Source: Mytilus californianus
Lineage: Eukaryota
NCBI RefSeq assembly: GCF_021869535.1
Contig: NW_026262581.1
Span: 54,746,001 to 54,810,000, forward strand
DNA: 64,000 nucleotides
Reading direction: 5' to 3'
How positions within the stretch are numbered: position 1 is the stretch's first letter; each line of letters opens with the position of its first letter. The notes under the pieces were generated by a model. It searched no databases and was not told the origin of the DNA. It saw nothing but the letters and a program-made list of their open reading frames with translations. The translations under genes were made by a program, and so were the position numbers. Positions 25,231-61,599 of the stretch are shown here, piece after piece.

Positions 25231-26192
25231 TCCTTAAATAATTACATTGTTCTGATGAAATATATTTTTACTAGGCCAACCACCCGGATTGCAAACATAT
25301 CCCCCAACATGAACACATACAGTCGCCGAGTCTTTGCACTAAATTGTAATTTAAAATGCAGAATGTCCGGGAAATAACAAAACCTTACCTTTAAATATTT
25401 GGTTATACCAATAAAGAACCTGGGATCAAACAAAATGCCTTCAGCTTTTGAGACGATAATGCTACCTCAAAGACAGTTGTATATATTGTAATAAAGTTTC
25501 ATAAGTTCATTTTGAATTATTAAGTTTTCGATGCGCAGTCACAATGAATTTCAGTACGTATGTTGATGACAAAGAAATTATTTTTGAAATTGATCTTAAT
25601 AAGTTCGAAGATTTTGTTTTTTGTTATTGAAGATAGATATTCCGTCGTTTATGTATATACTTCTTGTTAATGCCGATCTGAATCCTGGTGTTGTTCCAGT
25701 TACGACTTCGGTTTCAGTCTTAACAAGGGATTCTGCTTTGCTTTTTTTTTGTTTGATCGACAGTACGCAGATTTACTTGGAAAGTGTTGAGCCTCCAGTA
25801 AACATATACGCGCGATGATTGATTGATATGAATGTTGGTTGCTTTACGTCCAGTGACAAATATTTCATGTATGTTAGCGACGCCCTTGTCGAGCTCAAAG
25901 TAGCACAGTTGTTTCCCATGGGAATGCAGAGAGTTACCTTCAATGGTGCAAGCTCCAGGGTAGATTACTTGCGGACTTTTGGGACAATGTCAAGAGTGCT
26001 AAAATACGAAAAATGTATGACAAATAGTAACACTTGATAAAAGAAACAAGTTTACATACCATAAATACTTGAACGCTGTATGTAAACTCATATTAACAGT
26101 AGGAATCCATTGCAGACGGAGTTGTGGAAATCTTGAGTTTTCATCAGTAACACTATTTTACGGAACGTGAAGTTTCTACGGTAAAACGTAGA

Positions 26193-26623
26193 TTGATTGA
26201 TTGATTGTTGGTTGCTTAACGTCCAGTGGCAAATATTTCATGCATATTCAGGACGAGAACAAGTTCACAATAAATACAATAGGTAGGTTCTGTAATAGAT
26301 TAAGGGATTAAGGTCGGAGAAATTTAGACTGCCACGGGAAATGAGGGTATATTGGATAGGGACAGAAATTTAGCCTTGCAACAGGTCACCTACGGACCCC
26401 TCAAAGAGTTGTTGCAAGGGTTCTTAACGTGCAAAGAACGTGGCACTTTCTTTACACGAGGCATCGGATTTAACGTCCCCATTCTGACCGGACGTGGCTG
26501 CAAATTTGTACATCCCGCACAGCCAAACGGACGCCCCACTTTAGCACGGGTTTTACTGCCGGTCGGAGGAAGACCAATGGTGACCATACTTCTATTCCCC
26601 AGTCACCCTTGGGGGGGGGGGGG
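26193..26623 (-). mobile_element. Young full-length SINE-like retroposon with (TCAA)n tail and 13-bp TSD
   Basis: TSD ggtaaaacgtaga at 26180-26192 and 26624-26636. About 4 substitutions relative to the 45584 copy. Confidence 0.9.
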
Positions 26624-38801: not shown

Positions 38802-39003
38802 GTCTGTTGCAAGGCTAAATTTCTTTCCCTATCCAATATACCCTCATTTTCCCGTGGTAGTCCAAATTTTCCCGACCTGCAACCCAGTTGACCTGTATTA
38901 CATGACCTACCTATTGTATTTATTGTGAATTTGTTCTCGTCCAGAACATGCATGAAATATTTGCCACTGGACGTTAAGCAACCAACAATCAATCAATCAA
39001 TCA
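38802..39003 (+). mobile_element. SINE-like retroposon, 3' half
   Basis: Ends atatttgccactggacgttaagcaaccaacaatcaatcaatcaatc. Confidence 0.85.
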
Positions 39004-39194: not shown

Positions 39195-41130
39195 ATCAAT
39201 CGTTAAAGACTAAATTGTTGCAAAACACTTGTCCTACCTCCTTGAAAAATATTTTGTTGTCCCCGCAGTTAAAGCCCCTAACAACATCTTGTTTGTGTGT
39301 AAATCACATTACATAAACTGCTTGATAAATGAATTAGGTATTGACAATTCACTTGGAAACTCAACATATACCCCCACGACACTATCGAAATCCTGGATAA
39401 TCATAGGTCTGTTCTCTGTTCATTAGGAATCTCAACCAAAGATGAAGAACTGGATCTTCCATCACTGTATTGGATACCTAACCTACATAAGTGTCCTTAA
39501 AAACAACGTTATATTGCTGGGTCTTCCCAAGTGCTCCACAAAACCTTTTTAAATAGTTAACATCAATTTTATCAGCAATCAAAGCCGGGCTTCAAAGTTA
39601 TTGTGAAAACTACCCATTCCACAGGTGGCGTGAATCAGATGTGGATACTTAAAAAAATTCCAAAGATCTTTTAGAGTACATACAATCTAAGACTTTTTCA
39701 TCATGCAGTAGTATTAAACATTTGTCTTTTCATCTTCATTTTTTTTTCCACCTTCAAATATTTTTTTGCACTAATAGTTGTGAACAATGTCCCTTAGCGC
39801 TACAATAATGACGCTAAGGTTCCTCCCTGTCTTGTTAGTTACTAATGAAACCAGGGGATTCAAAATCATCATACATTTATAATATTCTGTGATAGTTGCA
39901 TTTTACAAAATATTTCTACGAGCACACATATATATATATACATATTTGACTTTTCTACACAAGTATTCCCCATTTCATACTAAAAGACAAATTAAAAGAT
40001 TTGGTCCTGCTTTGTTTCATATAAAAGAATGGCCACCGTAGATACAAGTATCTTGTCTTAGGGAGGGATAAAACCTACTTTGTAAAAATTACTCTGATAT
40101 TCAAACAAAAAATTCTCTGAAACAACTGACATGATCAAGACGCATGAATTCTTGATATTTGTTACGTTTGGAGGACGTGTTTTTCAACAAACAATCTGCA
40201 TTCCCATGGGAACCAACTGTGCCTCTCTTCTTGCCGACTTGTTTCTTTATTCATATGAGGCTGAATTTAAACAGCAACTTCATTTTATTTCAAAATTTGG
40301 TGACTATGTTGAACCCATCTACCCTATTGAACTTGAGATAAAGTATACAACAGATAAAGTTAAGTCTGCCTCATATCTTGACTCACATCCAGAAATTGAC
40401 CATAAGGGTCGGTTGAAAACAATACTTTACGACAAAAGAGATGAATTTAGCTTCCCAATTGTGAACTTTCCATTTCTAGGTAGCAACATTCCAGCAGTGC
40501 CTACATACGGAGTATATATCTCCCAGCTTTACGACAAAAGAGATTATTTCAGCTTCCCAATTGTGAACTTTCCATTTCTATGTAGCAACATTCCAGCAGC
40601 GCCTGCATACGGAGTATATATCTCTAAGTTGATAAGATATTCTAGGGCTTGTATTTCCTATCATGATTTCCTTTATAGAGGGTATCTGCTCACAAGGTAG
40701 CTATTAAACCAAGAGTTTCAAGTGGTGAAGTTGAAATCATCCCTTCCAAAATTTTACGGACGCAATCACGAGTTGGTTGACCGTTATAGAATATCCGTTT
40801 TACAGATAATAGCGGATATATGTTCCAATTGTCGTAACTACAATCCAGTCCCCTTTACCTCAAATGTAACCTACTGAATTAAGACTTATTACCGGGTTTG
40901 TACTAACATGAGCAACACAACGGGTGTCACATGTGGAGCAGGATCTGCTCACCCTTCCGGAGCACCCAGTTTTTGGTGGGGTTGGTGTTGCCCAGTCTTC
41001 AGTTTTCTATGTTGTGTTTTGTGTACTTTTGTTTGTCTGTTGGATTTTTTCTTTTTTAGCCATGGCGTTGTCAATTTATTTTCGACTTGTAAGTTTGAAT
41101 GTCCCTTTGGTATTTTTCGCCTCTCTTCTA
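39195..41130 (+). mobile_element. Decayed Penelope-like element RT region plus 3' tail
   Basis: Reads VVPAVKAPNNILFVCKSHYINCLINELG, LPSLYWIP, GGRVFQQTICIPMGTNCASLLADLFLYSYE, YDKRD.FSFPIVNFPFL.SNIPA.P.YGVYIS and LIRYSRAC. There is an unrelated insert at ~39730-39945. Confidence 0.85.
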
Positions 41131-42699: not shown

Positions 42700-43072
42700 C
42701 CCAAGGGTGACTAGAAAAAAGAAATATGGTCACTACAAGTCTTCTTCTAAATGTGGGGCGTCCGTTTAGCTGTACGGGACGAACAAGTACGCAGCCACGT
42801 CTGGTCAGACTAGGGACTTTAAATCAGAGGGAATGCACGTTAAGAACCCTTGCAAAAACTCATTGTGGGGTCCGTAGGTGGCCTGTTGCAAGGCAAAATT
42901 TCTGTCCCTATCGAAATTACACTCATTTTCCAGTGGCAGTCTAAATTTCCTCGACTTTCATCCCGGACGGCCTCTATTATAGGACCTACCTATTGTATTT
43001 ATTGATAATTTGTTCTCGACTTGTACATGCATTAAGCATTTGCCACTGGACGTTAAGCAATCAACTAATCAA
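42700..43072 (+). mobile_element. SINE-like retroposon copy (older)
   Basis: Starts cccaagggtgact and ends ccactggacgttaagcaatcaactaatcaat. Confidence 0.8.
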
Positions 43073-44049
43073 TGAATCTAAAATTGAGGCTTGTCATATT
43101 TTTAATTTAAGAAATGTGAGTAAACGTACAAGTAGGTCTTGCACTTTTTACCTCCACATCAATCATTTGAGAAAACACGAGTTTTAAACACAGGTAAAAA
43201 AATGAAAATGGGATAAAAGCTTCCCCTCAAAAACACTAAAACAAACATGCTTGCATGATTTTGTAGTTAATAAGCTCAAGGACAAACATTTATGTGTTGT
43301 TTTACCTGTGTTTTATCAATATTTATAGTGCAAGGGAACTTACTCTTGAAGGTTTCATTTCATTGCGTAAAAAAATTGGGACATTCAATCAAATAAAGTA
43401 AACATGCTAAACTAACTAAAGAAAAGTGAAACACAGAGACAAATAAATGAAAAAAATACAGTAATTGTTAGAATTAGACATCAAATGACAATAATTGCAA
43501 ATATGACTTCAGTTACAAAATGTAAATGTTGTAATTTTAATTTCACATAGTTTTATTTTATTTCATTGTTTGTCTTTTCAAATGAATACATGTATTGTGG
43601 ATGGATGGATGCATTGGGAAATTTTGTGTCTGATGCAAGGTTTATTTCAATATCTTGGACCATTATCCCATTTTCATAATTATTCAAATAAAAGAAAGTT
43701 TTTATTATAAAAAAAAACAACTAACTCAAAACATGCACATACAATACACTCTTGGAAAAGTGGGATTTGTTTTAATGATAAGATATATTTATCACTAAAT
43801 AAATGCAGTAGATTCATGAAAGGCTGTAAAAAGCAAATTGGATAACCTTTTAATAAGAATATTAACATGTTCAAAAACTAAACCTGGCTGTAAAACGAAT
43901 TCTTTGTGACTTGCATTCTGACATAGCTTAAGCTTTTTATATCCGTTTTTTGCGAGCCTGTGACCTGTAAAATTTGACTCTCAAACTTTTTTTTATACGT
44001 ACTATCATATATTTCATATTTACGTACTTAAAAAGTATTTCTTTCAGAG

Positions 44050-46060
44050 CCAATACAGCACGAGACTTTTTACCTAAAGCTTTCAAAGTCTTAAACCAAT
44101 GAAACATCACTTTTATTGTTGACTATCAAGACTGCTGCAGATGCACAGCCTATAGCATCGCGTGAAAAATTCTTATTTTTAGTTAGGCAAGTAGAAATTG
44201 TTCTATTACGGACCCGCACTTGTTTATATAGCTGAAAATTTGCATCTTATTCAAAGCAGTCTGAGAGAGTTTCATTTCCAAGAATGATTCTATTAACATT
44301 TTTTTTTCTCTGTCACCATTTTATTAAGAAAGTAAGAATTTCATTATACCGTGTTACCATCACTTTAAATCATTGGCAAAAGCTATTTTAGTATCATTTT
44401 ATTGGCCTTTGTAGCTTCAGGGAACATACCGACACTAAATTTGGCTCTGAGTACTTCTCGGAACTGACTTTCACCCATATGTATAGTATCTGCAAGTCTA
44501 TTTACTGACTATAAGGGATCAATATTTCTTGCATTGCTTCTTGTAAACCTTGTACACTTTTCCATCCCGATCAGTAGTTCAATAATGCACACAAGTAAAT
44601 CAAGTTTGGCAATTGTTTTACCTATTTCATTCCCAAGATCATTCTCATTCAAAGGATTATATACCTATTAGTGTTTGCTGTGGGGTATACATTATCAGAA
44701 CATTCAACCTCACAACCTTTACCGCGTAACCATGCACAAACCAAGCATAGTTTGTTTATTAAGTGAATACCTATGACATCATGATTGTCTGTTTCATTTG
44801 CAAAGGCAATACCAGTTACTTTTGATGCATTTTGTCCCATTTTATGTCTACTTTGTATATAAATACTCTGCTAGGTACCATCCATTTTTAATTTTACAGG
44901 ACTAATTTTATTTAAACCTAAGGTTTGATTTCTCCTAACATTATCAACCACTTGTTATCATTCTTATCAAGTTTTACAAACTTGTCACAACCATTATTTG
45001 TTATTCTCTGCATTGTTGTGTTTGCCATAAGAGGAATACATGAACTAGTCAAAAGTACTCGCGCGCTATCATTACCAATATTAGAGTTCATCACGCCAGT
45101 CTGAAACACGTAGTTAATTGTAGCACTCTTGCAACAAGGACGCCCTTTGTTAATTTCTCTAAGCAGTTTATATTTTTCTGAAATGAATGTACACTTGGCA
45201 TTTCCTAAATCCAACCGAGACCCCATTTAGTTTCTTGTATCAGTTCAAAATGTGGAACATCACAATTTGGACTTTTATTTATATGACAAATTATAAGATT
45301 ATAATCATAAAAAATGTTCAGATCTCTATCTACTGTTATGTTTTCTGTATTTTTCTCCACTAAATATTCATCTAGATAATCATCAGGCAATTTACGGGGT
45401 CGTACATAATATTTCTTATCAAAACTCTTTTGAGTAAAACTTAAACTCCATTTCAGTAAGTCCGGTTAAACAGACAGATACTGTGATGGTTTTAGGTGTC
45501 ACATTTGTAGTTGAATAAGAATATTCAAAATTAGGTGATGCCGGTGCAACTTGCTTTGATAAAGTTTTTAAATCTGTGTAGATTGATTGATTGATTGTTG
45601 GTTGCTTAACGTCCAGTGGCAAATATTTCATGCATATTCAGGACGAGAACAAGTTCACAATAAATACAATAGGTAGGTTCTGTAATAGATTAAGGGATTA
45701 AGGTCGGAGAAATTTAGACTGCCACGGGAAATGAGGGTATATTGGAAAGGGACAGAAATTTAGCCTTGCAACAGGTCACCTACGGACCCCTCAAAGAGTT
45801 GTTGCAAGGGTTCTTAACGTGCAAAGAGCGTGGCACTCTCTTTACACGAGGCATCGGATTTTACGTCCCCATTCTGACCGGACGTGGCTGCAAATTTGTA
45901 CATCCCGCACAGCCAAACGGACGCCCCACTTTAGCACGGGTTTTACTGCCGGTCGGAGGAAGACCAATGGTGACCATACTTCTATTCCCCAGTCACCCTT
46001 GGGGGGAAATCTGTGTAGATGGAGCAACACTATTAATAACACCACAATGTTGATTTGTTG
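44050..46060 (-). pseudogene. Unidentified ~2-kb decayed, apparently intronless coding region
   Basis: Four track ORFs (44649-44840, 44918-45226, 45205-45390, 45419-45631) plus further open stretches join end-to-end with frameshifts and stops. A SINE-like copy interrupts it at 45584-46006. No family recognised. Confidence 0.45.
45584..46006 (-). mobile_element. Young full-length SINE-like retroposon with 14-bp TSD
   Basis: TSD aaatctgtgtagat at 45570-45583 and 46007-46020; (TCAA)n tail. Confidence 0.92.
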
Positions 46061-46883: not shown

Positions 46884-47405
46884 TGTAACGATTTCGCCCC
46901 TTAAACCGAGTGGATAGGATTAAATAGAATAAGAGGCTTGACCGAACATAATTTGCATGGATCCTTTGAGTTGGTATAATGTTGAAATAATAACTAAGTC
47001 AGGTATAACTTTCAGCTGTACTTTATGTAGCATCTATGAAATCAAATATTTACAATTCATTGACAAACTATATATTTATATCTATATACAACATGTCGTA
47101 ATCATCCAATGTATATGTCAGGAAGGTTGATTGTTTCCGATGGTTGATTCGGTAGAAGGTTGAATTTTTCAACCTTCCGTTACCGATATCATAAAATACT
47201 TATCTTATTTCTTTCTGTTAAAATAAAACTAGATTTCCAGAAAAACTCTCATATTACGATAGAAGATTGACTAAGTGGAACGAAGGTTGACTGGGAATTT
47301 CCCATAGGTTGAAGGTTGACTTATGCAAAACCGACAATAGCCATGTGAAAGCCTTAACGTTAGAAGGTTTAGTTTTCTTACAACATTTAAGACCTGCATA
47401 CCATA
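46884..47405 (-). repeat. 3' LTR of Gypsy copy 1 (inner boundary uncertain, possibly ~47710)
   Basis: Homologous to 54490-55055 and 59390-60198 (gagaataagaggc, gcatggatcctttgagttggtataa, gaaggttgac, ccatgtgaaa blocks). Confidence 0.8.
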
Positions 47406-48258
47406 TGACTGCTCGAGTAAATAGACTATGTCACTGTTAGGATTTAGATGATCACGGCTAAATCACAAGTTATATCAAGAAAATAGGTTAGTTAAAAAGG
47501 TAAACACATTCCAGCATCATTTATTATAAACATACCTGCCAACCAACCGTAAATATTCTGTACCAGGTGAAATTCCATCGTAAAAAATCGATGTGAAAGC
47601 GTTAATAAAACCGCTGATTCATAAAATTACTACAATAAATTACGGACAAATGTGGTTCTAAGCACGAGAGTCATTAATTAAATCATACGATTACTAAATC
47701 ATAATACAGACCCCCGACAACTAGGCGTTTGTCCTCAAATGCACAGAAATTTATCTATACATGTATTAAATTAATCAAGTAATTGATTGGTTGGCTCAAA
47801 TGTTGAAAACAAAATTCAATAAGACAAACTGTCTTACAATGCCAAATTCATCCTATGCACTCTAACTTAAAACTCATCTATTCACATACAAATAAATGGG
47901 TTCATTTCAACAACATTCAACAAGTGTCAAATAACATTATCAATGGATATAAAATCCACAAATATAAGACAAACTTATAAACTACCTTCTACTATATATG
48001 AATAGTGAGCCAATACTGAACAGTAAAACCTGAGAAAAGAAAAGGATAAAATATACTTCATCAGTCATAAAGCCATCATAGGGCTTTTCTAAGGTAATTC
48101 TGTACAGCATTAAGAATATCTATCATCATTAAGCATAGCAAAATATATTAATAACACACAATATATATATACAACATGATCCTGTAAAATAAATTGTCCT
48201 AATAAAGTCCCCCCCCCCCCCCCCCCCCCCCCCACCCCCCCACCCCAAATGTTCATTT

Positions 48259-49430
48259 CTAAATTAAACTAAGTTGTTGGAGATCCAAAATCTTCTTCTC
48301 GACTGTGAATTCCGGTTGTCTCAACTCATAAAAATTGCACTCCACTTGCAACTCACGTCTCTAGGGAGCATGTCAGAATGGATACGGGCCTGATTTCTTA
48401 AGTAGTTAAGTATAAGGGGAAAGTGTTTAGCATCTCTGTCCAAAAAAATAGTTGTGACGTCCATCAAATATATATTGCTTCATTGGAGAGTCGACCTCAA
48501 TCGGATAAAATTGATTCTGGATATGACTGTAGAACTGTTGCAGAGATTTCAAACCTGGTACCACCAATATTTATTATGAACCGGGACTTCTGGCTCTTCT
48601 GAATCTGCTCTAGCTTAAGCTTCTTAACTGGGGTAGGGATATATGTAGCTGCAGGTTAACTTAATGGTGATGGTGAGGTAGCTTCCAGGGTTGGTGAATA
48701 GGTAAGGCAAGGTTCTGTTGAAAGAGGTAGGCATAATGATGTAGACATCACGGGTGACTCTGTTGCAGGGATCTCATTTGAAGAGATGGTTATATCAGCT
48801 GGGAGAGGAGAAATAGATTCCACCACCGCTGTTAGCATCTCGATCTTATAAAAATTTGTTTTCCCCAAAGTCACAGAGGGATACACCCTCAATACTTCCC
48901 ACTGAGGAAGTTTCCAGCTCTTTTAGTAGGTCTGTAAGGACTTCCTTCATTCTTGATCTCCTTCTCTTTTCCTTTACTCTTGTTCTCCTTTCCTCCTCTT
49001 TTTCTCCTTCCTCTTCTCTTTTCTCGCTTTCTTCTCTGGAGTCCTCTATTTCCTCTTTCTTCTCCTCTGGAGCCTTCTTTGGCTCCTTCCTTTTCTTCGG
49101 TTTCTCTTCCCCATATACTATCCTATTCAGCGGATAAAGGGCCTCCAACACCGCCCTAGATGTTGCCGACATCGTGTCCTTGTGCGAATTCCTTCTGTTG
49201 TTTTTCTGTCTCTCTTCTTTTTTCAACTGCGCTACCTTGTCCACCACTAATTTACCATCCCTCTCCTTTTGGAACTTTCTGTATTGCGATTCTTCTTCCT
49301 CGTTTAAAGTCATGGTCAGGCGACTTACCATCCTAAATTTGCTCTCACAGTTCTTATGAGCTTGTTGCCTGCTTACTACCACTTTCCACTCGTCGCAACG
49401 ATAGCCAAAGCCGCTATGTTGGTCCGACAT
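48259..49430 (-). pseudogene. Gypsy accessory ORF (~390 aa reconstructed): putative zinc finger, charged region, S/T/P linker and KCTD/T1-type BTB/POZ domain
   Basis: BTB part (48280-48589) reads KSRFIINIGGTRFEISATVLQSYPESILS..EVDSPMKQYIFDGRHNYF(L)DRDAKHFPLILNYLRNQARIHSDMLPR..RELQVECNFYELR. One premature TAA and several frameshifts. Confidence 0.85.
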
Positions 49431-49739
49431 GTGCCTCTTACAAATAATAGATTGGTCGAAGCTGAAGTCATGGCATATACTACATGCGTATACTGTGACC
49501 TATAATTATGAAAAGGAACATTTCCTTTAAAAATTTTGTGATATAATTTTATCTTAACTGATAAAATATATGATATGAAATATTTCTATAACTGTACTAT
49601 GCTGGGTAGACTATGGATATTTTAGGGTTCAGCTTCCCCTTATAACCCTAATTACTATTTAAACCAATCGGGAACATTTTCTCCAAGATGGGGCTTCAAC
49701 CTGTCTTTGTGCATCACTTTAAGCTTGGTCTTTGGACCT

Positions 49740-51400
49740 TTCTGGGTGCACTACTTTATGCTTGGTTTTTAAACCTTTCTGTATACGATAATTCACATCG
49801 TGAAGTGTATTTATGACAATATATGGACCCTCCAAATTATTTTGTAGTTTTGGACATAACCCCTTTACACGACGAGGATTGTGTAACCACACTGGATCTC
49901 CTGTATCAAATATGTGCATTTTAGTCCCAATGTCATAATTTCTTTTCATCCTGTTGCTTGACAGTTTAAATTTATTTCTTGCAAATTGCTGAATTACCTC
50001 TGACTTTTGAGATAATTCATATGCATAAACAGTTTTTAAATATGAAGGTGACTTTTCAGTCTCTGGTCTCCCCAGAATAAAATCTACTTGTAAATTAACT
50101 TATCTTCTAAATAACATGGAACATGGAGATGTGAAGCGCCAAACTGATACTATAAATTGTTGGCAGATATTATGCAAATATCAATGATAAAAGTCACAGT
50201 ATTAAACTGTTTTGAAAGTCCAAACTTTGTAAAACTAGAAACAAGATTTGTTTAGATAAATAAAAGCAGCTTTATCAAAAGCTAATATCATTAATAATAG
50301 TTATCAATTAATACAAATAAATTGCAATGTATTTTATATAACTTGCAGTGTGTGCAAAAGTACCTGAATAACAAAATACTGTAAACTGTCAAAATCAGCT
50401 GTTCACTCTGGGCTCTAATTTGAAACTGACAACACTTTCTGAAAACGTTTGTTAGACGACGTCACTCAATACACGCTTAAAATAGTACATGTACTCACAA
50501 ATGTGAAAGTAAACCAACGTGGCCTTCTAGTTGACAATTAGGATTTGGGATAATTCTAATTTTATAAAAGGATAAATATGGATTAAATAGGATGCATTAA
50601 TAACGTCTAAATAAGGTAATTATGTTGTAACTATGAAAGATCATTCCGCATAACAAGCAAGTGTGCAAAAGTGAAAATAAGTATGACCTAGTTTCGCAGA
50701 AAATATACGCCAGGAAATACAAATAAAATGAATGAATGAAGGCTATTACTTAAAGAATTACTGTCAATAATTGTGGCACAACAAGATGTACCCAAACTCT
50801 CATGTTCTGATGACCGATAGGCACACCATTAATAAATAAATATCTTCATCCAAATCTCTTTGGTGTTTGCTTAAAAAAACAGATAACATAGTTTCTATAG
50901 TAAAATTTGACTTTTCAACCATACCATCCGATCCAATATTGCACATTTCTTTAATTACACGAGACTCAAAGTTAGACCCTTGGTCTGAGTGAATAGACAG
51001 TGGAATCCCAAAAATGGTAACTATTATTTTTACAAATTTCTTAGCTACTGTAGTTGCTTCAGTGTCTTGAATAGGTATGGCTTCCGTCCATTTGGAAAAA
51101 TAGTCTTGAACTACCATCAAATGGCGATTATTATTTATACTACATGGTAAAGGTCCTAAAATATCAATGGTCATTCTTTCCCAATGAACACCCAAAAGAT
51201 ACTTTTTCATTGGGACCTTGGGGTTTTTTACAAGGTGCTTTCTTAGAAGCTCAAATATCACATTTGGTACACCCAAATTTAACATCTTGTCTCATTGTAT
51301 ACCAAAAATGTCTGTTTAATTTTTTACAGAGTTTTCCTAACACCAAGATGACCACCGGTCACTGTGTTATGAACTTGGTTCAACAGGAACCTTTTAAAAT
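49740..51400 (-). pseudogene. pol: Gypsy integrase (HHCC, core and GPY), split by an insertion at 50133-50783
   Basis: Reads HNTVTGGHLG...CTKCD, WERMTIDILGPLP, QDYFSKWTEAIP, SDQGSNFES, GMVEK and LEGPYIV. Confidence 0.9.
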
Positions 51401-51989
51401 TAGCTGGAAGAACAATGTGTAGATCATAACGTTTTCCGTTATAGCTTTCCCATTTTCTATACAAGATTCCATTGACCAGTATTAAAGAATTAAACTTGAA
51501 CAATAAAATTTAACTTCAGGACTCATATGGGATACATCTGCCCATGTAGGTTTAGCTTCATCTATTTTCCACTGTATAATTATACTGATTATATCATAAG
51601 ATAACTGAGATGTTGAAACATTTTCAGAATATATCTCTTTAGTTGGAGTGTCTTTATCAAAATTCTCATTCTGTTTATTATATAGACTGCAACCATAATT
51701 TTTTGATCTGGTACAAACTCTTTCTATTTTAGAATGTTCAGGGAGTACATCAGGGTTTTTCTTTGGACCCTCTCTATTAAATTTATTATGAATGTCGTGA
51801 CTTTTAGATTTGTGGCACGATTCATCACTTGTCATGTTTGTTCTCATGATTTCATTTGAACAGCTTATACTAGGTTTTACACTTGACTGCTGATCAGCAC
51901 TGACATCTTGAACAATTTTGCAAGATTCACGTACAGTGACATTAGAATTTTCAACCTTAGAATTGTCAGATTCTTTATGAGTTGGACAA

Positions 51990-53260
51990 AGTTCATAATT
52001 CATTTCTGCTCTAGCACAATGAGGGCATTCTTTATTATAGCAAGGACGTCTACTTAGGGCGTCTGCATTATTATGGGACCTTCCAGCACGGTGCTCAATT
52101 TTAAAATCATAGGATGATAGGACCTCAAACCAACGAGCTAACTCGCCTTCCGGATTCTTGAAATTAAACAACCAACTTAATACACCATGGTCACTTCTAA
52201 CTTTGAAGTATTCACCATATAAATAATGATGAAAATGTTTAATAGAGGTCACTACTGATAGTAGCTCTCTTCTAGTAACACAATATTTTCTCTCAGATCT
52301 ACTGAAAGTTTTACTAAACTAACAAATCTTGGAGTTGGGATAGCACTGCTCCCATACCAACATTACTTGCGTCGGTATCTAATATAAATAAATCCTCCCT
52401 TGTGGGTAGGCCAAAATAGGTGTTCTAATTAAGGTATTCTTTAATTCCTCAAAGGATGGTTGACAATCGTCTGTCCTGACAAATTTCTGGTTTTTCTCAG
52501 TAGCCTTATAAAAAAAATCTATAATAGGATGTTAATCCTAGAAAACTTCTTACATCTTTGATACTCTTGACCACTGGCCAGTCCTTAACTGACTGAATTT
52601 TATTTGAGTAAGTAGCTACTCCACTTTCACTAATGACCTAAAAATATAACTTCTGTCTTTAAAAAGTTACATTTCTTGGGATTCAGCTTTAAATTGGCTG
52701 CTTTTAATCTTTGAAAAACTTCTTTTAAGTTTTTCATATGCACCTCAAATTATTTTTGAGAAAATAACAATATCTACGTAAACTAGACAGATTTTCCAGG
52801 TCAAATCTGATGAAACTGTTGCCATTAATCTTTTAAATACAGGGGCACTATTACATAGATCCGTTGGCATTCTTTTGAACTGCCATAGACAACCTCCAGG
52901 AAAGGAAAAGCTGTTTTTCGTTTATCTTCTTTGGCTACTGGGATCTGACTATATCCTGACTTTAAATCGACAGTTGAGAAGAACTTGGAGCCTGACAATG
53001 AACCTATAGTGTCATCTATACGAGGTAATGGGTAAGATGGTCGTAAAACCAGGAAATTTACGGAGAGAAAATCAATACAGAATCGCCAACTGTCGTCTGA
53101 CTTCTTCACGATAACAATATTGGAGTTCCAGGGACTTGTTGATGATTCTATAATATCTTGCTTAACCATCTTCTGAATCTCAGCTTCATCATTTTTTATT
53201 CTAGCTAGGGGTATTCGTCTGGGTCGCTGACGTACTGGAAGGTGATTTCCAGTATTTATG
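51990..53260 (-). pseudogene. pol: Gypsy RT and RNase H
   Basis: Reads SPWNSNIVIVKKSDDSWRFCIDF, YPLPRIDD, FSTVDLKSGY, CLVYVD-IVIFS (one Asp deleted), ERKYCVTRRELL, SDHGVLSWL, LARW and NADALSR. Confidence 0.92.
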
Positions 53261-53647
53261 GAAAAGATTATTTTATACTTGCAGTATTAGTATAGTACTA
53301 GTAGTGGTTACATCTAATATTGATAAAGTGTCTGTAGGTATTGATGAAGAGTCTGTAAATTCATGAATACTGGTTGTGGTGAGATCTAATGTTGATGGGG
53401 TGTCTGTATGTTTTTGAGGGCAAATGGTTGTGGTAATTGAAGAAATTATAGGTTGGATGATGTCTTGTGTGATGGTTCCATATCAATTGCGAAGGTGTCT
53501 GGAGAATCAACGGGTAAAAGATACTTAGCGAAAAGTTCATCGGATGGTATTATAGCTTCAGTTGGTGAGTCATTCAAAGATTGTTATTGGTGATGGTGTA
53601 CGAGGTTCCACACCCAACAGGTCTATAAATTCAGGCCTGTTAGCATT

Positions 53648-54245: not shown

Positions 54246-55207
54246 AACAATAAATTGAGCAGGTACTCAAAATAAATAATCTTGCATACATACAAACATC
54301 TCTGACATCCTAACCCCTCAACTGTTACACTAGCCCTACCCAGGGAGAAGCGTTCGTCTCGAACTAATATTAAGTAAAATATCTACCAAACAAAAAGCCT
54401 ACCTAACCTGTATTCAAACATCATCACTGGTCCAAATGTCTAAAAGTTCGTGCATATTTCCATCTGGGCGGTCGCAATGTTCTTTGTATAATAACGGTTT
54501 CGTCCCTTAAACCGAGTTGATATAATTATTGAGAATAAGAGGCTTTACCGAACATAATTTGCATGGATCCTTTGAGTTGGTATAAGGTTGAAATAAAAAC
54601 AAAATCAGGTATACATTTCATATGTCATCAGTAAAATCAAATATTAACAATTCATTGATAAACTATATATTGATATCTATATACAACATGCAATTAACAT
54701 TCGATGAATAGGTACTTAAAATTGAACAACAAATAAGAGAAGGTTGACTGTTTCCGAAAGGTTGATTCGGTAGAAGGTTGAAAGTTCCGTTACCGAAGTC
54801 TTAAAATATAAAAGTTGCTTTCATAAAATAATCATTTATTTTATTTATTCCTGCCAAAACGAAAGTAGGTTACCAGGAAACCTCTCTCATAATATTTTAA
54901 CAATAAAAGGTACACCAAGTGGAACGAAATTTGGCTGGGAAGGTAAAAGGATGACTCATGCAAAACAAATAGCCATGTGAAAACGTTAGAAGGCTTAGTT
55001 TTTCTTAAAACATAAAAACTGCATACCGGACATGAAGCAGATTTTGGTTCAGACAAAACAGCTGAACTAAAGTTGAAATTAAAATTACTGCAATAAATTA
55101 CTCACAAATGTTTGTTCTAAGCACGAGATACATAAATCGTAAGACCCCCCACCCCCACCCCCAATGTTCATCACAAGATCGTGAAATTGTCCTTATAAAG
55201 TCCACCC

Positions 55208-56185
55208 TCAAATGGTCATTCTTAAATCAAAGTAAGCTGTCGGGAGATCCAAAATCTTCTGTACAGCCAGTTCTAGGTGCCTTAACTCGAAAAAATTACA
55301 CTCAACTTGTAATTCACGTTGAATACGGATATCTCTGGGGAGCATGTCGGATTGTATATGTTCTTGTTGTCATAAATAGTTGAGGATGATGGGGAAAATG
55401 TTTAGAACCTCTTGCCAAAAAATAAGTATCCATCAAATAAGTATGGTTTCACTGGTGAATTAACTTCGATCAATGCAGATAAATATGAATCGGGATAAGA
55501 TTGTAGAATCTTTGAACAGACGTTTCAAAATATTGCGCCTCCAATATTTATAATTAACCGGGATTGCTGGCTTTTTGTATTTGTTCTAACTTAAGCTTTT
55601 TTACTGGAGTGGGGATATAGGTGACGGCAGATTGACTCAATTCTTTTGGTGAGGTAGGATGATGTATTAGGGAATAGGTAAGGCATGGTTCTGTTACTAT
55701 TGAAGGTGGTATATAAATAGATGTATTCCAGATCGCATAGTGACACACCCTCTATACTTTCAACAAATAAAGTCTCCAAATCTTTGTTAGAATTTCTTTC
55801 TGTTGACTCCCCTTTTCCTTTTCCTCTTTCTAGTATATGCTTTCTCTTTCTTATCCTGTACCGTCCTGTTCTGTTATCTGCTTTTAATACCATCCTATTA
55901 GGTGGATAAAGAGCTTCTAGAACAGCCGTAGGCATTGCTGACGTCTTATTTCTCTTTCTTATATGAGTTCCTTTTATTATTTTTCTGTCGTTCTAATAGT
56001 TATACCTTCTCTACTATAATCTTCCCATCCCTATCGTCCTGAAATGTCATGTACTGTATCTCCTCTTCGTGAGTGAAGGTCATAGTCGACTCGCTATCCT
56101 AGGTCTGCCCTTACAATTATTGTGATCTTGTTGGCTACTCGCTACTACCTTGCATTCTTCACTCCAATAGCAAATCCACTATTTG
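55208..56185 (-). pseudogene. Second copy of the BTB/POZ accessory ORF
   Basis: Reads SRLIINIGGAIF..ILQSYPDSYLSALIEVNSPVKPYLFDG..YFLARGSKHFPIILNYL*..SDMLPRDIRIQRELQVECNFFELRHLELAVQKILDL. The N-terminal part is homologous to 49430-49130. Confidence 0.85.
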
Positions 56186-56194
56186 TAAAGAATT

Positions 56195-57000
56195 GACAAT
56201 CGTCTTCTCAGTAACCTTTTACAAAGGTTTAGCTTTATAAGCAAAATTTATTACACATTTTCTATAGTGGGATGTTAATCCTAAGAAGTCTCACATTTTT
56301 GACACTCTTGGGCACTGGCAAGTCTGATCGTATTTTATTTCGGTCAGTAGCTACTCGACTTTCGCTAACAATGTGACCTTAAATGTAGCTTCTGTCTTTA
56401 AAAAGTTACAATTTTTTTATTCATCTTTAAATTAGCTGCATGTAATCTATAAAATTTTGTTCATATGCTCCTCAAATGATTTTGAGAATATAGATTAATT
56501 TCATCTAGGTAAACTAGACAACTTTTGCAGGTCAAACCTGATAAAACTAGTTCAATTAATCTTTCAAATACAGGGGCACTATTACAAAGACTCATTGGCA
56601 ATCTTTTGAACTGCCATAGACCACCTCCTAATAAGAAAAAGGCTAATTTTGTCTTTCCTTTTTTTGGCTATTGGAATCTGATAATATCACGACTTTAAAT
56701 TGACGGTGGTAAAGTATTTGGAGCCTGACAAAGAATCTATAGTGTCGTCTTTTCGAGGTAATTGGGATGAGGGGCGTAAACCTGCAAGTTTACCGGGCGA
56801 AATTTTTACAAATTCGGCAACTGTTGTCTGACTCCTTTACGAGAACAGTATTTGAATTCCAGGGACTTGAGGGTTCTTTGATATCATACTTTGCCATCTT
56901 CTGAATTTCAGCTTCATCTTTTATTCTAGCTAGGAAAATTTGTCTGGGTCGCTTACGTACTGGATGGTGATTTCCAGTATTTATTGTATGTTCCATTAAA
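56195..57000 (-). pseudogene. pol: Gypsy copy 2 RT remnant
   Basis: Reads HTINTGNHHPVRKRPRQI, SPWNSNTVLVK and CLVYLDE. Collinear with 52460-53255. Confidence 0.85.
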
Positions 57001-57577
57001 TCTGTTACACCAATGTCCTCAGAGGACTGTTAAAATATACTACATTGTCTTTATTTTTTCTTCTTTGATCCTCATCAAGATTAAGTTGACTAGATTCTTA
57101 AGCTTCCTGTAAATAATCAGGTAATTGTCTCCCTTTAATTATTGAAGCTTGACAATGACAAACTCAGAAGGTTGAATATCATCTTTCACTTTATTGCATG
57201 TAGCAATAAGTGTACCCTTTTAGAAAGTGCAGGGCGCATTATTTACATTTTTTATTTCTAAAAGGGATATTTTACATCTCTGGGTGGCACCAATGAACAA
57301 TTTGTGTCCATAAACTTTTAATTGTATTCTATTAATCCAATTAAACCTCTAAAAATAGGTTCATTTGACTGTCCCGAAACAATTATTTCTGAATAAGGAG
57401 GCACATTTACTGTCTCTTGTATAGCAACTATATAACAAGATTTAGCCCTACTTGCATAATGAAACCATTGAATTATATCCCCTTTAATTTTCGACTTCTT
57501 TGACTTAATAAGACATGACCGTCCTGAGTCACACGACAATTACCTGTGATTCTTTCAAAATGTCTGTCCCTATCCAA

Positions 57578-57742
57578 TATACCCTCATTTTCAAGCAGCA
57601 TTCCAAATTTCCCCGACCTTCATTCCGGACGGCCTCGGTTACAGGACCTACCTATTATATTTATTGTTAATTTGCTCTCGTCCTGAACATGCATGCAATA
57701 TTTGCCACTGGAAGATAAGCAACCAACAATCAATCAATCAAT
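57578..57742 (+). mobile_element. SINE-like 3' fragment inserted between gag and the protease/linker region
   Basis: Ends atatttgccactggaagataagcaaccaacaatcaatcaatcaatc. Confidence 0.8.
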
Positions 57743-57842
57743 CTTAATTGACTGAGCCAACTCCGGTTAACTTTCTACTTTCCCTTTGATACGGGTCTGG
57801 TATTTTGCCTGAAATAGTTCTGCTTTTTTCAGGAGAACATAT

Positions 57843-58060
57843 CTATTGATCAAAACTTACTAAACTTTCATAATCTTTCCTAGACTCTTTATCTAGTTCA
57901 TTTAACAGAGCTCTAGCTCCCCCTTTTAAGCTACAAGCCAAATCAAATGACTTGGTTGCATAATTCCAACCATTTATTTCAGCTAAAATTTCAAATTGAG
58001 CTAAATATGTACTGAAATCTTTATCGCCTTCACACAATTATGGTTTCATTGTAACATTGC
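57843..58060 (-). pseudogene. gag: Gypsy gag fragment
   Basis: Reads EGDKDFSTYLAQFEILAEINGWNYATKSFDLACSLKGGARALL, matching the Gypsy gag pattern DG..DW..Y..QFE..A..N.W....K...L...L.G.A. Confidence 0.75.
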
Positions 58061-58762
58061 CAGACTTGGGTGAATGGATATCGGAATTGGCCAATCTTGG
58101 AACCTGAGATCTATCCACTACGGCATAGTTTTGATTTATATTACATATTTTGTCTTTATCAAAAAAATATACATTATCCGTGTTCTGTTGTTGTTATGTT
58201 TGCACCAGGAACTGCTTGCCTAACTACTGATATCACTTTTGATATGTTTTCAGTGTTTACAATTTCACTCATGTAATCATTATAATTAACTAAATCATTA
58301 TTGTGTTCCATCATTTTGTAAGTGTTAGCGATAGTTTTCATCTTCAATTTTCATTATACCGCCCTTAATAAAGAAATTTCTTGTTCGAATCATGTCTTAT
58401 ATGTTTAATAGCGCAAATAACTTCTTTTTTGTAGTTTGAAAAATCATTAATTTTCTCCCTTGGTGGAATAAAGTTATTATGGTTTTTTTTAACACTGTTA
58501 AAAATATATCTTGTTCTTTATCATGGCTAATTATCTGCCTTGCAGAGTCAACACTATCAACCTTCTGATCATCATAAGGAATGGTTATTTCACAATCATT
58601 TTGCTCTAGGAAAGAATCATTAATAGCTATAATTACTTCTTCAGAATCATCCAAGATTGAATAAAACCTCTATTCCAAACATCTTCTTTGGGTTTATAAA
58701 CATTTTTAAAAGCCTAATATCAATAAAATTTACCAAAGCTTCCCCAGTAAAATTGTACAGAT

Positions 58763-59343
58763 AAAGGACAATGTACGATAAGGCCTGTTTTTAGCCCCCC
58801 TATTTTCTCATTTTTCAAATTCTGTTTTGGAAAGTTACTTATTATGTTAAAATATTCCCTGAGGTTTGAAGTTTGTTTGGATGAACTTCAAAACCACTAA
58901 TTTTAGCAACTGGGTGAGGTGAGGGGGGTAAACATTCTGTAATCATTCAAATATTGTAATTATTATTCACTTTGCAGGTGTTCCGTACAACTAATTTTTA
59001 GTTTTTAAGTGCCTGCGCCAACGTGACCCAAGAATTTTTTTATTCCAAGGTCATGAGAATTGTTTTTGGTGTCTAAATCGCCATAATTTTCTCCGGGTCA
59101 CGTAGGCGCACGCTATTAAATGTTAAGAAACAAAGGCCAAAAATCGTACTTTTTCCTTCTTTTGGCGTTTTTAATGCCCTTTTACCTCCCTGACTTCACC
59201 CATTTTCTGAAATTAATGGTTTTGAAGTTCATCCAAACAAACTTCAAACCTGAGGGAATATTTTAAAGTAGCTTTCCAAAACAAAATTTAGAAAAAGAGA
59301 AAATAGGGGGGCCAAAAACGGGCCTTATCGTACCTTGTCCTTT
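58763..59343. mobile_element. MITE/foldback element with ~170-bp TIRs in the Gypsy leader
   Basis: Left aaaggacaatgtacgataaggcc...gaggtttgaagtttgtttggatgaacttcaaaacca mirrors the right end ...ggccttatcgtaccttgtccttt. A second inner inverted pair is acgtgaccc/gggtcacgt. Confidence 0.85.
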
Positions 59344-59372: not shown

Positions 59373-59388
59373 CCCACTTCTGACACCA
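59373..59388 (-). promoter_or_regulatory. Primer-binding site complementary to the tRNA-Leu 3' end
   Basis: Minus strand reads TGGTGTCAGAAGTGGG one nt after the LTR end (...CGTTACA). The plus strand cccacttctgacacca equals the recalled 3' end of metazoan tRNA-Leu including CCA. Confidence 0.8.
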
Positions 59389-59607
59389 GTGTAACGGTTT
59401 CGCCCCTTTTACAAAGTTGATATAATTTATTGAGAATAAGAGGCTTTACCGAAAATAATTTGCATGTATCCTTTGAGTTGGTATAAGGTTGATGACATAA
59501 AAACTAAGTCAGGTATAAATTTCAAATGTACTTTATGTAGCATCTATAAAATCTAATATTTACAATCCATACGTACTTTTTGTAGCATCTTTACAATCCA
59601 TTATACC

Positions 59608-60040
59608 CAACGCAACAAACTTGCGAACGGTATAATGTTTTTGACCCGTCTGTCAGTCCTGTTCTTGTCATCGCAATTCCTCTGAAACTACAAAAGAGAA
59701 TTTCATAACACTTTGTAGATAATAAGGGCAAACTATGTATGTGCATATCAACAGGAAATTATGATACATTTTTTTTTTTTTGAGTTGTGTCCTTTTGAAA
59801 TTTATCCTAGATATACTACTGCAATAATTTGTCATCGAAACTCCTATGAAACCATACAATAGAATTCATGATACTTTGTGAATAATAAGGGCATACCATG
59901 TTGATGTGCATATCGACAGGAAATTATGATTCAATTATTTTCTAGAAGTTATGCCGCTTTGAGCTTAAAATTTTTGCCTAATTATACTACTGCAAATGTT
60001 TGTAATCGCAAATCCCCTGAAACCAAGAGCACACAACTGA
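59608..60040 (+). mobile_element. Truncated HINE inserted into the Gypsy 5' LTR
   Basis: tataccc..cgca-aaac-tgcg..ggtataa head, gtctgtcagtc microsatellite, and ~170-bp units as at 37207. LTR homology resumes at ~60045. Confidence 0.7.
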
Positions 60041-60534
60041 ACAATAGACTAAGTGGGACGAAAGTTGACTGGGCATTCCCCGAAGGTAGAAGGTTGACTC
60101 ATGCTAAAACCAAATAGCCATGTGAAAGCCTTAGATGGTTAAGTTTTTCTTAAAACATATAAAACCTGCGTACCAGACAGTAGATTTTGGTTCAGACACC
60201 TCATCGAAGGTTGACTATTTTTTTCGATCTCAGGGATTGTTTTATCTGCTCTTGCAGACGTGAGAATAAATCTAAAGATGTTTTGTAAACATTGCACAAG
60301 TCATGTCTTCTTTGACTGTCCATGACGTTAAAATACTAAATCCCTGGGATGTGTTTTAGTTGATTTTAGTCTCTGATGCATGATTTTTTATTATTAATTG
60401 TTTTTGGCTTTTAACTAGCTGCCAGTAACTGCTAGTACTCTCAAATCGTACTTTCTTGTTTATTTGACCTGTTGATACTAATTGTAATGCTTTTTTGTTA
60501 TTTAATGTTATTCAGGGTTATATCTGGTCTATAT

Positions 60535-61590
60535 ATAGATATAAGAAGATGTGGTATGAGTGCCAATGAGACAACTCTCCATCCAAGTAAAAATTTATAA
60601 AAGTAAACCATTATAGGTCACAGTACGGTCTTCAACACGGAGCCTTGGCTCACACCGAACCGTAAGCTATAAAGGGCCCTAAAAAATTACTAGTGTAAAA
60701 CCATTCAAACGGGAAAACCAACGGTCTAATCTATATAAAAAACGAGAAACGAGAAACTCTTATGAACCACATCAACAAACGACAACTACTGAACATCATA
60801 TTCCTGACTTAGGACAGGTGCAGGGTTTAAACGTTTTAATGGTATATACCAGCTTTGATAAGTGTTTGGAATTACTATACATTTTCACTTCTTCGTACTA
60901 TGAACATCAAAATTATTTATTTTGTAAATATATTTCCTTTCTCTTTTTGAACTGTACACGTATACCTAACAACAAAATTATTTTCATTTACCTGTGTTTA
61001 AAGTAATTGCAAATGGTTGATATTTTTGTTCAAGCATATTGTTTTTCTTACAATGTTTAACATTTCACAGCGGTATAACATGTTACTTTTATTATTCTTC
61101 CCTTAATTTATTTATTTTGTATTAACATTGTTTCATAGATCAAATTTATTTGTTCACTGGTGTTAATATGTCTTTTGATTGAGTTAAGCCATTTCAATTG
61201 ATATTTTATAGTGTGTCTTTCTATGTTGTGATGTTACACAATTGTTTCAGATAAGGGTAAAGGTTTGGTACCATTAAAACGTTTAAAGCCGCTGCAATTG
61301 TTTACACCTGTGCTAAGTCAGGAATCTGATGTTCAGTAGTTGTCGTTATTTGATGCGGTTCATAAGTGTTATTCGTTTTTCGTTTTTTATATAGATTAGA
61401 CCGTTGGTTTTCCCGTTTGAATGGTTTCACACTAGTAATTTTTTGGGGCCCTTTATAGCTTGCTGTTCGGTGTGAGCCAACGCTCCGTTTTGAAGACCTT
61501 ACTTTGACCTATAATGGTTTACTTTTATAAATTTTGACTTGGATGGAGAGTTGTCTCATTGGCACTCATACCACATCTCCTTATATCTAC
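60535..61590. repeat. Inverted pair of ~290-bp interspersed repeat copies
   Basis: 60535-60825 (plus) is the reverse complement of 61295-61590, with scattered mismatches and a ~470-bp spacer. Confidence 0.85.
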
Positions 61591-61599
61591 TTATTTTGC

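Follow-up and report, generated by a model that had tools for sequence, protein, structure and literature searches.

The window analysed here is a stretch of 64,000 nucleotides of Mytilus californianus DNA. It contains a decayed Ty3/Gypsy element, of which the third open reading frame (ORF3) lies at 48262–49499; this and the other element features given below are on the minus strand. Comparison with a natural relative showed the element to be one of two copies in tandem, in the order LTR, primer site, gag, partial pol, ORF3 remnant, partial LTR, RT-RNase H-integrase, ORF3, LTR. The pol remnants of copy 1 (49722–53286) keep the order RT, RNase H, integrase, with gag and protease absent; the integrase remnants at 49722–51291 matched Pfam Integrase_p58_C (4e-8) and rve (6e-10). 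On the other side of ORF3 are a polypurine tract (47707–47726) and the 3' LTR (46884–47706), in which an internal deletion has taken out the TATA and ATG region and five TCAACCT family motifs are left. ORF3 is in the same sense as pol, and its position between integrase and the 3' LTR agrees with that given in a preliminary description of this DNA. The two copies are separated by a partial middle LTR (54492–55135; four TCAACCT). Copy 2 comprises an ORF3 remnant (55211–56226) whose decay is further advanced than in copy 1, remnants of gag and part of pol (56205–58754) with RNase H and integrase deleted, a primer-binding site complementary to the tRNA-Leu 3' end (59373–59389), and a 5' LTR split by an insertion (59390–60277). 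No target-site duplication was found in the window itself, and the window copy of the element is dead.

ORF3 of copy 1 was delimited by tblastn with the natural pieces of a relative, and is a pseudogene for a protein with a zinc-finger pair, a charged low-complexity linker and a C-terminal BTB_2 domain. The preliminary description had read a KCTD/T1-type BTB signature from a reconstructed, frameshifted peptide, and the signature is real: the BTB domain occupies 48262–48577 in pieces, and the piece at 48324–48479 matched BTB_2 with E 6.5e-6, over the cut-off, a second piece at 48500–48655 giving E 1.3e-3 (under cut-off). The breakage is equally as claimed, since the BTB motifs are interrupted by stops and frame changes across all three frames. 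That account located the region correctly and missed its start: the coding exon opens about 70 bases further upstream, at an acceptor-like site (49500–49520) consisting of a T-rich tract ending in YAG, in phase 0, which is found in 9/9 listed copies. It also overlooked the conserved N-terminal part of the protein, a C2H2 plus C2HC finger pair and a following helix (49245–49499; 59% identity to the relative's piece), which in copy 1 has lost one Cys that is otherwise invariant in the alignments.

We examined if other copies of the gene exist within the same genome. There were at least 40 matches for the BTB half, and at least 33 and at least 49 for the N-terminal part; among 40 fetched loci, both ORF3 domains were present at 36, and RT and/or integrase lay within 9–10 kb at 37. 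Among 20 loci taken as 20-kb stretches, ORF3 was fully open in 6, and gag, pol and ORF3 were all open in 2 (391, 1376 and 409 codons), the LTRs of these two elements being 99.9% and 100% identical with 4-bp ATAT flanks (by eye). The intact Gypsy copies that the preliminary description proposed to look for thus exist, some with LTRs 99.8–100% identical. The natural 1376-aa frame has the domain order protease-RT-RNase H-integrase; paired LTRs (TG...CA), a primer-binding site matching tRNA-Leu and a polypurine tract are present, and by structure the element is a Ty3/Gypsy LTR retrotransposon. The clades named in the part of PMC6238403 covered here are MolGy1-16, C-clade, CsRN1 and others.

The association of ORF3 with pol is regular. 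For family A, an ORF3 match was located directly downstream in 19/19 loci with an integrase end at least 55% identical (coordinates by eye); for family C, to which the window copy belongs, an ORF3 match lay downstream in 7/10 loci with an integrase end at least 80% identical (by eye). One of the three family C exceptions runs into an unrelated element, and two are ORF3-less copies with a common junction. The latter (L182 and L183) are 90% alike; at the one junction, about 75 bases of unrelated sequence separate pol from the 3' UTR. As a separate observation, the locus L092/L091 (G000:C154, ~88.334–88.338 Mb) holds a 4.3-kb deletion derivative, LTR-gag fragment-ORF3-LTR without pol, with LTRs 97.5% identical. 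Two sister families were also found. One has an ORF3 of 275 codons without BTB (L186:19-843, with the LTR from ~L186:1442; G000:C57:30911830-30914329), comprising C2H2 finger(s) and a Pro/Ser-rich tail, with a conserved motif at the C-terminus; it has 10 database relatives, and at least 8 loci appear to belong to it. The second sister family has neither ORF3 nor an LTR array.

Beyond this genome, both domains with the BTB C-terminal were found in 49/173 protein clusters compared. The named two-domain members are from the bivalves Mytilus, Pinctada, Crassostrea, Pecten, Mercenaria, Ruditapes and Dreissena and the gastropod Gigantopelta, most members being unnamed, and the named relatives of the window ORF3 are Mytilus proteins. 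Retroelement context outside this genome was direct in one locus only (L181), and indirect in gene models of Mytilus in which ORF3 is joined to integrase. A contig scan for related loci gave one metagenome contig (L180, 1 kb, without context) and one genome contig, L181. The L181 contig is filed under a Sedimenticola genome bin and carries, in permuted order, integrase, ORF3, LTR, gag and pol; it is likely to be animal host DNA within that bin. Public annotations list these ORF3s as host genes with misleading names.

The model of the ORF3 protein consists of fingers, disorder and BTB. Open ORF3s matched Pfam BTB_2 (PF02214) with E values of 2e-16 to 4e-19, over the curated cut-off, and the BTB model matched KCTD BTB structures (Foldseek E 8e-7, TM ~0.8 by target length). 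No transmembrane segment was detected, as had been noted for the window copy: a 19-residue hydrophobicity window above 1.6 occurred in just 1/50 family proteins. The preliminary description had suggested that ORF3 may act as a CUL3 adaptor or decoy on host silencing or restriction proteins; with the finger pair included, this would mean that the finger end selects such a protein, to be degraded, while the BTB brings in Cullin-3. Many KCTD BTBs do bind CUL3, according to the part of PMC10856315 consulted, and the closest folds to the ORF3 BTB include the CUL3 binders KCTD13, 17, 10, 5 and 9. The top sequence matches were KCTD1 and KCTD15. In the same portion of PMC10856315, the alpha2-beta3 loop is the site of most KCTD-CUL3 contacts, and loop rigidity given by prolines is the likely cause of CUL3 non-binding in KCTD1 and KCTD15. 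This loop is proline-rich in ORF3, mean proline numbers being 2.6 for 14 elements of this genome, 1.8 for 44 relatives and 0.3 for 22 host BTBs. The loop and the finger-only sister gene, which has no BTB at all, weaken the CUL3 reading, and with the finger pair now in evidence we consider it rather unlikely. A complex prediction with two BTB copies and the N-terminal part of CUL3 (from a close relative, ~91% identical to this genome's exons), run without alignments, scored 0.00 in two runs and counts neither way.

The N-terminal 100 residues of ORF3 were predicted as a confident domain (pLDDT 94.7) composed of a C2H2 finger modelled as beta-beta-alpha, a shortened C2HC finger, and a helix. Of the zinc ligands, five are invariant in 37/37 sequences; Arg occurs at finger-1 +6 in 35/37 and at finger-2 -1 in 34/37, positions which, as a rule, read adjacent guanines. 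At finger-1 +2 and +3, bulky or hydrophobic residues are frequent, an unusual feature in fingers that read bases. The Pfam matches of the fingers were under cut-off, and the fold matches were weak (best Foldseek E 0.33, rmsd 1.6 over 44 columns; best Z 4.8), with nothing at E 0.001 or Z 5; the weak best matches were mostly DNA-bound tandem C2H2 fingers. ESM Atlas returned generic C2H2 or unnamed clusters only for this domain. The linker is charged and disordered in the model, with a basic run in 21/49 proteins. The fingers of BTB-bearing and finger-only ORF3s aligned weakly (probability 41%), and a common origin does not follow from the alignment.

Both ORF3 domains are under strong purifying selection. 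For pairs with measurable dS, and with columns below 55% local identity masked, dN/dS between subfamilies was 0.03–0.16 for the fingers and 0.04–0.18 for the BTB, compared to 0.13–0.41 for the linker and 0.15–0.69 for pol in the same pairs. The window BTB differed from its relative at 21/219 non-synonymous and 43/57 synonymous sites, showing that this lineage was under selection before the copy died. Close dead copies of family D gave values of 0.34–1.3. One could regard ORF3 as a captured piece of a gene that evolves neutrally, or as sequences fused by chance in decayed repeats, considering that the window copy is dead and that ORF3-less copies have spread; dN/dS values of 0.03–0.18, open frames in young elements, and the same two-domain layout in 49 clusters refute this, and we accord it next to no probability. 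Selection, unbroken copies and the KCTD/T1-type BTB together bear out the earlier proposal of an accessory gene in the env position of a Gypsy element.

ORF3 of the window copy was only 71–77% identical to that of its relative (L079/L080), compared to 88–92% for LTR, RT, integrase and 3' UTR, and the divergence was mostly at synonymous sites. The dip in identity was limited to the ORF3 exon, with a right edge that varied among copies (also L081, L083 and L085). From these alignments, ORF3 may have been exchanged as a cassette between elements, with alternative alleles kept over long times. Divergence much faster than that of the rest of the element is also as expected in a host conflict, and speaks for the CUL3 reading. 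An editing-type cause of the fast divergence was without clear support, the substitutions being spread over all six pair types (undirected counts).

The preliminary description had suggested looking for a spliced subgenomic transcript, and the splice anatomy agrees with this. Of the database relatives, 15 have at least 8 residues ahead of the first Cys, and 12 of these showed the read-through signature of the acceptor, which occurred in 107/1605 background windows; in 11 other relatives the start was a nearby Met. Soon after the LTR TATA box (chosen by eye), families A, B, C and D have an ATG followed by 6–12 codons and, in phase 0, a donor-like GT; this ATG comes first in A, B, C and 1/2 D copies. 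This LTR mini-exon was open in 9/13 further copies. The finger-only sister family, found later, provided an unplanned check: mini-exon donor and acceptor are both phase 2. Phase-matched mini-exons are therefore present in 5/7 LTR families, and are missing from family E and L181. Database gene model P0032 opens with eight residues encoded in the family A LTR, and gene models with a near-identical start were found in a second Mytilus species. As for RNA, 4 runs yielded no joint between LTR and ORF3. Contigs of two runs (RNA nature guessed) covered ORF3, not gag-pol, and a third run covered 30/30 bins; the runs were chosen with ORF3 as the query, and their ORF3 coverage is by choice. One contig begins exactly at the acceptor, but carries 29 letters absent from the element; raw RNA run X21 gave 7 reads in total, with 0 on ORF3. 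Use of the acceptor in RNA is suggested by these data. ORF3 is likely made from a spliced message starting inside the LTR, in which the LTR mini-exon would supply the start codon.

The LTRs carry tandem motifs. Each of families A–E has 8–10 copies of its own 7-mer, a count reached by 0/200 shuffles; no 7-mer array was found in the L181 LTR, where 167/200 shuffles reached the count. GGT[GT] is common to all family motifs, two families having it on the sense strand and three on the antisense strand, and a GGT core on either strand suits double-stranded DNA as the target. One-strand GGT[GT] clusters per 300 bases were 13, 30, 10, 8 and 9 for families A–E and 16 for L181, which was not among the elements used to derive the core; 125 background tiles had 8 sites or fewer, and the window's shortened LTR had 7. 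The core was picked after the arrays were seen; its rank was only 2nd to 29th among 384 patterns of its type. Counted for GGT on both strands, families C and D were not above background. The LTR of the finger-only sister has a GGTA/TACC array; its one-strand GGT[GT] count of 6 was not above background, and its both-strand GGT count was 25 (0/125 tiles). The ORF3-less sister-family LTR, the sole such control (n = 1), scored 3 for GGT[GT]. Families with related fingers share LTR motifs: the A and B fingers are ~60% identical and have CGGTG in common; those of D and E are ~49% identical and have CACCAA in common.

These arrays bear on three readings besides our own. The CUL3 reading leaves them unexplained. 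A Rev/Rex-like factor whose fingers bind RNA repeats, controlling export or splicing of the full-length message, would fit the layout, which resembles that of a spliced accessory gene, and the location of the arrays of families A–D, which for the most part closely follow the donor, where the LTR is transcribed. The GGT core, however, is on opposite strands in different families, and in the finger-only family part of the array is upstream of the TATA box; we consider an RNA factor quite unlikely. ORF3 could instead bind DNA of host genes or chromatin, the arrays being bound by transcription factors of the host. The motif of family C resembles nuclear-receptor half-sites, arrays persist in ORF3-less copies, and host BTB-finger factors could be mimicked or poisoned by such a protein. 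That the motifs track finger relatedness (A/B, D/E), and that the sister family without ORF3 is also without an array (n = 1), argues otherwise, and a host target of this kind appears improbable.

We favour, with a probability of roughly 55%, an oligomeric DNA-binding regulator, made from a spliced message and acting on its own LTR, as the ORF3 product, over a CUL3 adaptor. The spliced message with its start codon in the 5' LTR would give a nuclear ORF3 protein; the BTB, by likeness to its family, would form an oligomer and so bring several finger pairs together on the repeated GGT-core sites of the LTR; and occupancy of the LTR may then activate the element or protect it against silencing. 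This reading draws on the presence of both domains beside pol in most loci, the lower dN/dS of the ORF3 domains than of pol, the confident finger domain with its conserved Arg, the own-7-mer arrays, the array in the finger-only sister vs its absence in the ORF3-less sister, and the LTR-encoded start of P0032. Counted against it are the missing RNA joint, the 29 foreign letters on the contig that begins at the acceptor, the post hoc choice of core and its rank, the counts not above background in C and D (both strands) and in the finger-only family (one strand), the weak fold matches, the bulky residues at finger-1 +2 and +3, the dN/dS of 0.34–1.3 in family D, family E and L181 without a mini-exon, and the single ORF3-less control.

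If the ORF3 product acts in trans on the LTR, ORF3-less copies would be able to spread. The two with the common junction, L182 and L183, retain the LTR mini-exon and motif array, as expected for trans action; array retention in such copies also fits host factors binding the array. A more elaborate version of the LTR-regulator reading would be a self-specific transcription or anti-silencing system, in which an LTR-started, spliced finger gene coevolves with the LTR arrays, received in one lineage a BTB upgrade that would make its binding avid, swaps as a fast-diverging cassette, and is exploited in trans by ORF3-less copies. We put this forward tentatively, as possible and still doubtful as a whole; if true, it would be the animal retrotransposon counterpart of plant VANC.

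We examined the origin of the BTB with a FastTree tree of 211 BTB rows and 126 columns. The ORF3 BTBs stood apart (support 99) from 30 host BTB_2 domains, which were the best 30 of 113 BTB_2 matches of this genome, lower-scoring host BTBs being left out. The ORF3 BTBs did not form one clean clade, as tandem-BTB proteins nested among the ORF3 rows with weak support; these proteins (some with TLDc) and cnidarian-like look-alikes had been retrieved by the same profile. That the BTB is a captured host domain, as proposed in the preliminary description, is plausible; its donor was not found among the 30 best-scoring host domains in the tree. Among the tandem-BTB proteins, P0224, P0230, P0235 and others have 2–8 tandem BTB_2 domains, some with TLDc, and score highly against the ORF3 profile.

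The env gene of Drosophila gypsy is expressed by splicing, and a spliced subgenomic layout is likely for ORF3 too. Errantiviruses, the env-bearing Ty3/Gypsy elements, also place a third ORF downstream of pol and ahead of the 3' LTR, in the same sense, in the part of PMC13524379 available, and neither "BTB" nor "zinc finger" occurs in its main text as far as covered. ORF3 differs from errantivirus env in that it has no transmembrane segment or fusion protein, has a finger pair and BTB, and has its predicted start codon inside the LTR. VANDALs are plant DNA transposons. VANC of Arabidopsis VANDAL, as described in the portion of PMC5735166 seen, is likewise an extra transposon protein with family-specific tandem motifs within the element, varying between related families; no homology is claimed, and the function of VANC is experimental (PMC5735166), whereas DNA binding and anti-silencing by ORF3 are our inference. 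ORF3 is a real and selected third gene of mollusc Gypsy elements that appears not to have been described; it is not env and not a KCTD gene, and the retroelement accessory gene, as a kind, is already known. Complex retroviruses carry 3' accessory transactivators, such as foamy virus Tas/Bel1 and HTLV Tax. Retroviral transactivators and the additional ORFs of plant LTR elements (PMC7264820, in part) share with ORF3 a 3' accessory gene for which element regulation is thought or shown, and "BTB" and "zinc" are absent from the main text of that paper, as far as covered. Tas/Bel1, Tax and the plant ORFs are unrelated to ORF3 in sequence, ORF3 being a C2H2/C2HC pair plus KCTD-type BTB in an animal Gypsy element.

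The host proteins Tramtrack, GAGA factor and ZBTB are BTB-zinc-finger transcription factors that combine a multimerising BTB with C2H2 fingers. The best Foldseek row of the ORF3 finger domain (below significance), 2DRP, is the Tramtrack finger pair. In comparison with these factors, ORF3 has the reversed domain order, a BTB_2 rather than PF00651 domain, and is encoded by a retroelement. The ORF3 BTB shares with KCTD and Kv T1 domains (Pfam PF02214) its sequence (E down to 4e-19) and fold; it is C-terminal, usually 10 residues or fewer from the end, behind the fingers and disordered linker, and inside retroelements at the loci checked, whereas KCTD proteins have an N-terminal BTB (PMC10856315, part covered). 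KCTD1b, described in the part of PMC3212892 consulted, is a host KCTD gene joined by a Crypton transposon domain; both cases link a KCTD-type BTB with a transposon in animals, in opposite directions. The word "BTB" is absent from the available main texts of PMC6238403 and PMC10294476. In agreement with the preliminary description, whose author knew of no precedent, we found no description of a finger-BTB Gypsy ORF3 in the main texts of the open literature, and an entry in Repbase, Dfam or GyDB may exist.

In animal Gypsy elements, a third ORF is usually taken for env; ORF3 points to a regulatory accessory gene instead, in bivalves and a gastropod. As the candidate target can be read from the LTR of each family, the families offer a natural series of finger-motif pairs, and ORF3 a testable case of an animal retrotransposon perhaps controlling or protecting its own transcription. 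A sizeable part of the BTB_2 matches of this genome are these ORF3s, which could inflate KCTD gene counts in molluscs.

Other repeats were observed within the window and the genome. A dispersed repeat of ~300–400 bases occurs in both orientations at 26188–26487, 45578–45877, 38817–39002, 42750–43081 and 57558–57743; two of its copies are 99% identical, and one splits gag-pol of element copy 2. Inverted-repeat, MITE-like elements lie at 60531–61594 (290-base arms, 93%) and 58763–59343 (78–86-base arms, ~90%), and a frame at 40098–40700 resembles, by eye, a non-LTR (Penelope-like) reverse-transcriptase remnant. Elsewhere, contig G000:C26 (L109–L114) carries a long tandem array of tRNA-Leu(CAG) genes in units of ~400–460 bases, a pattern with 461 genome matches; the arrayed genes match the primer-binding site of the element.
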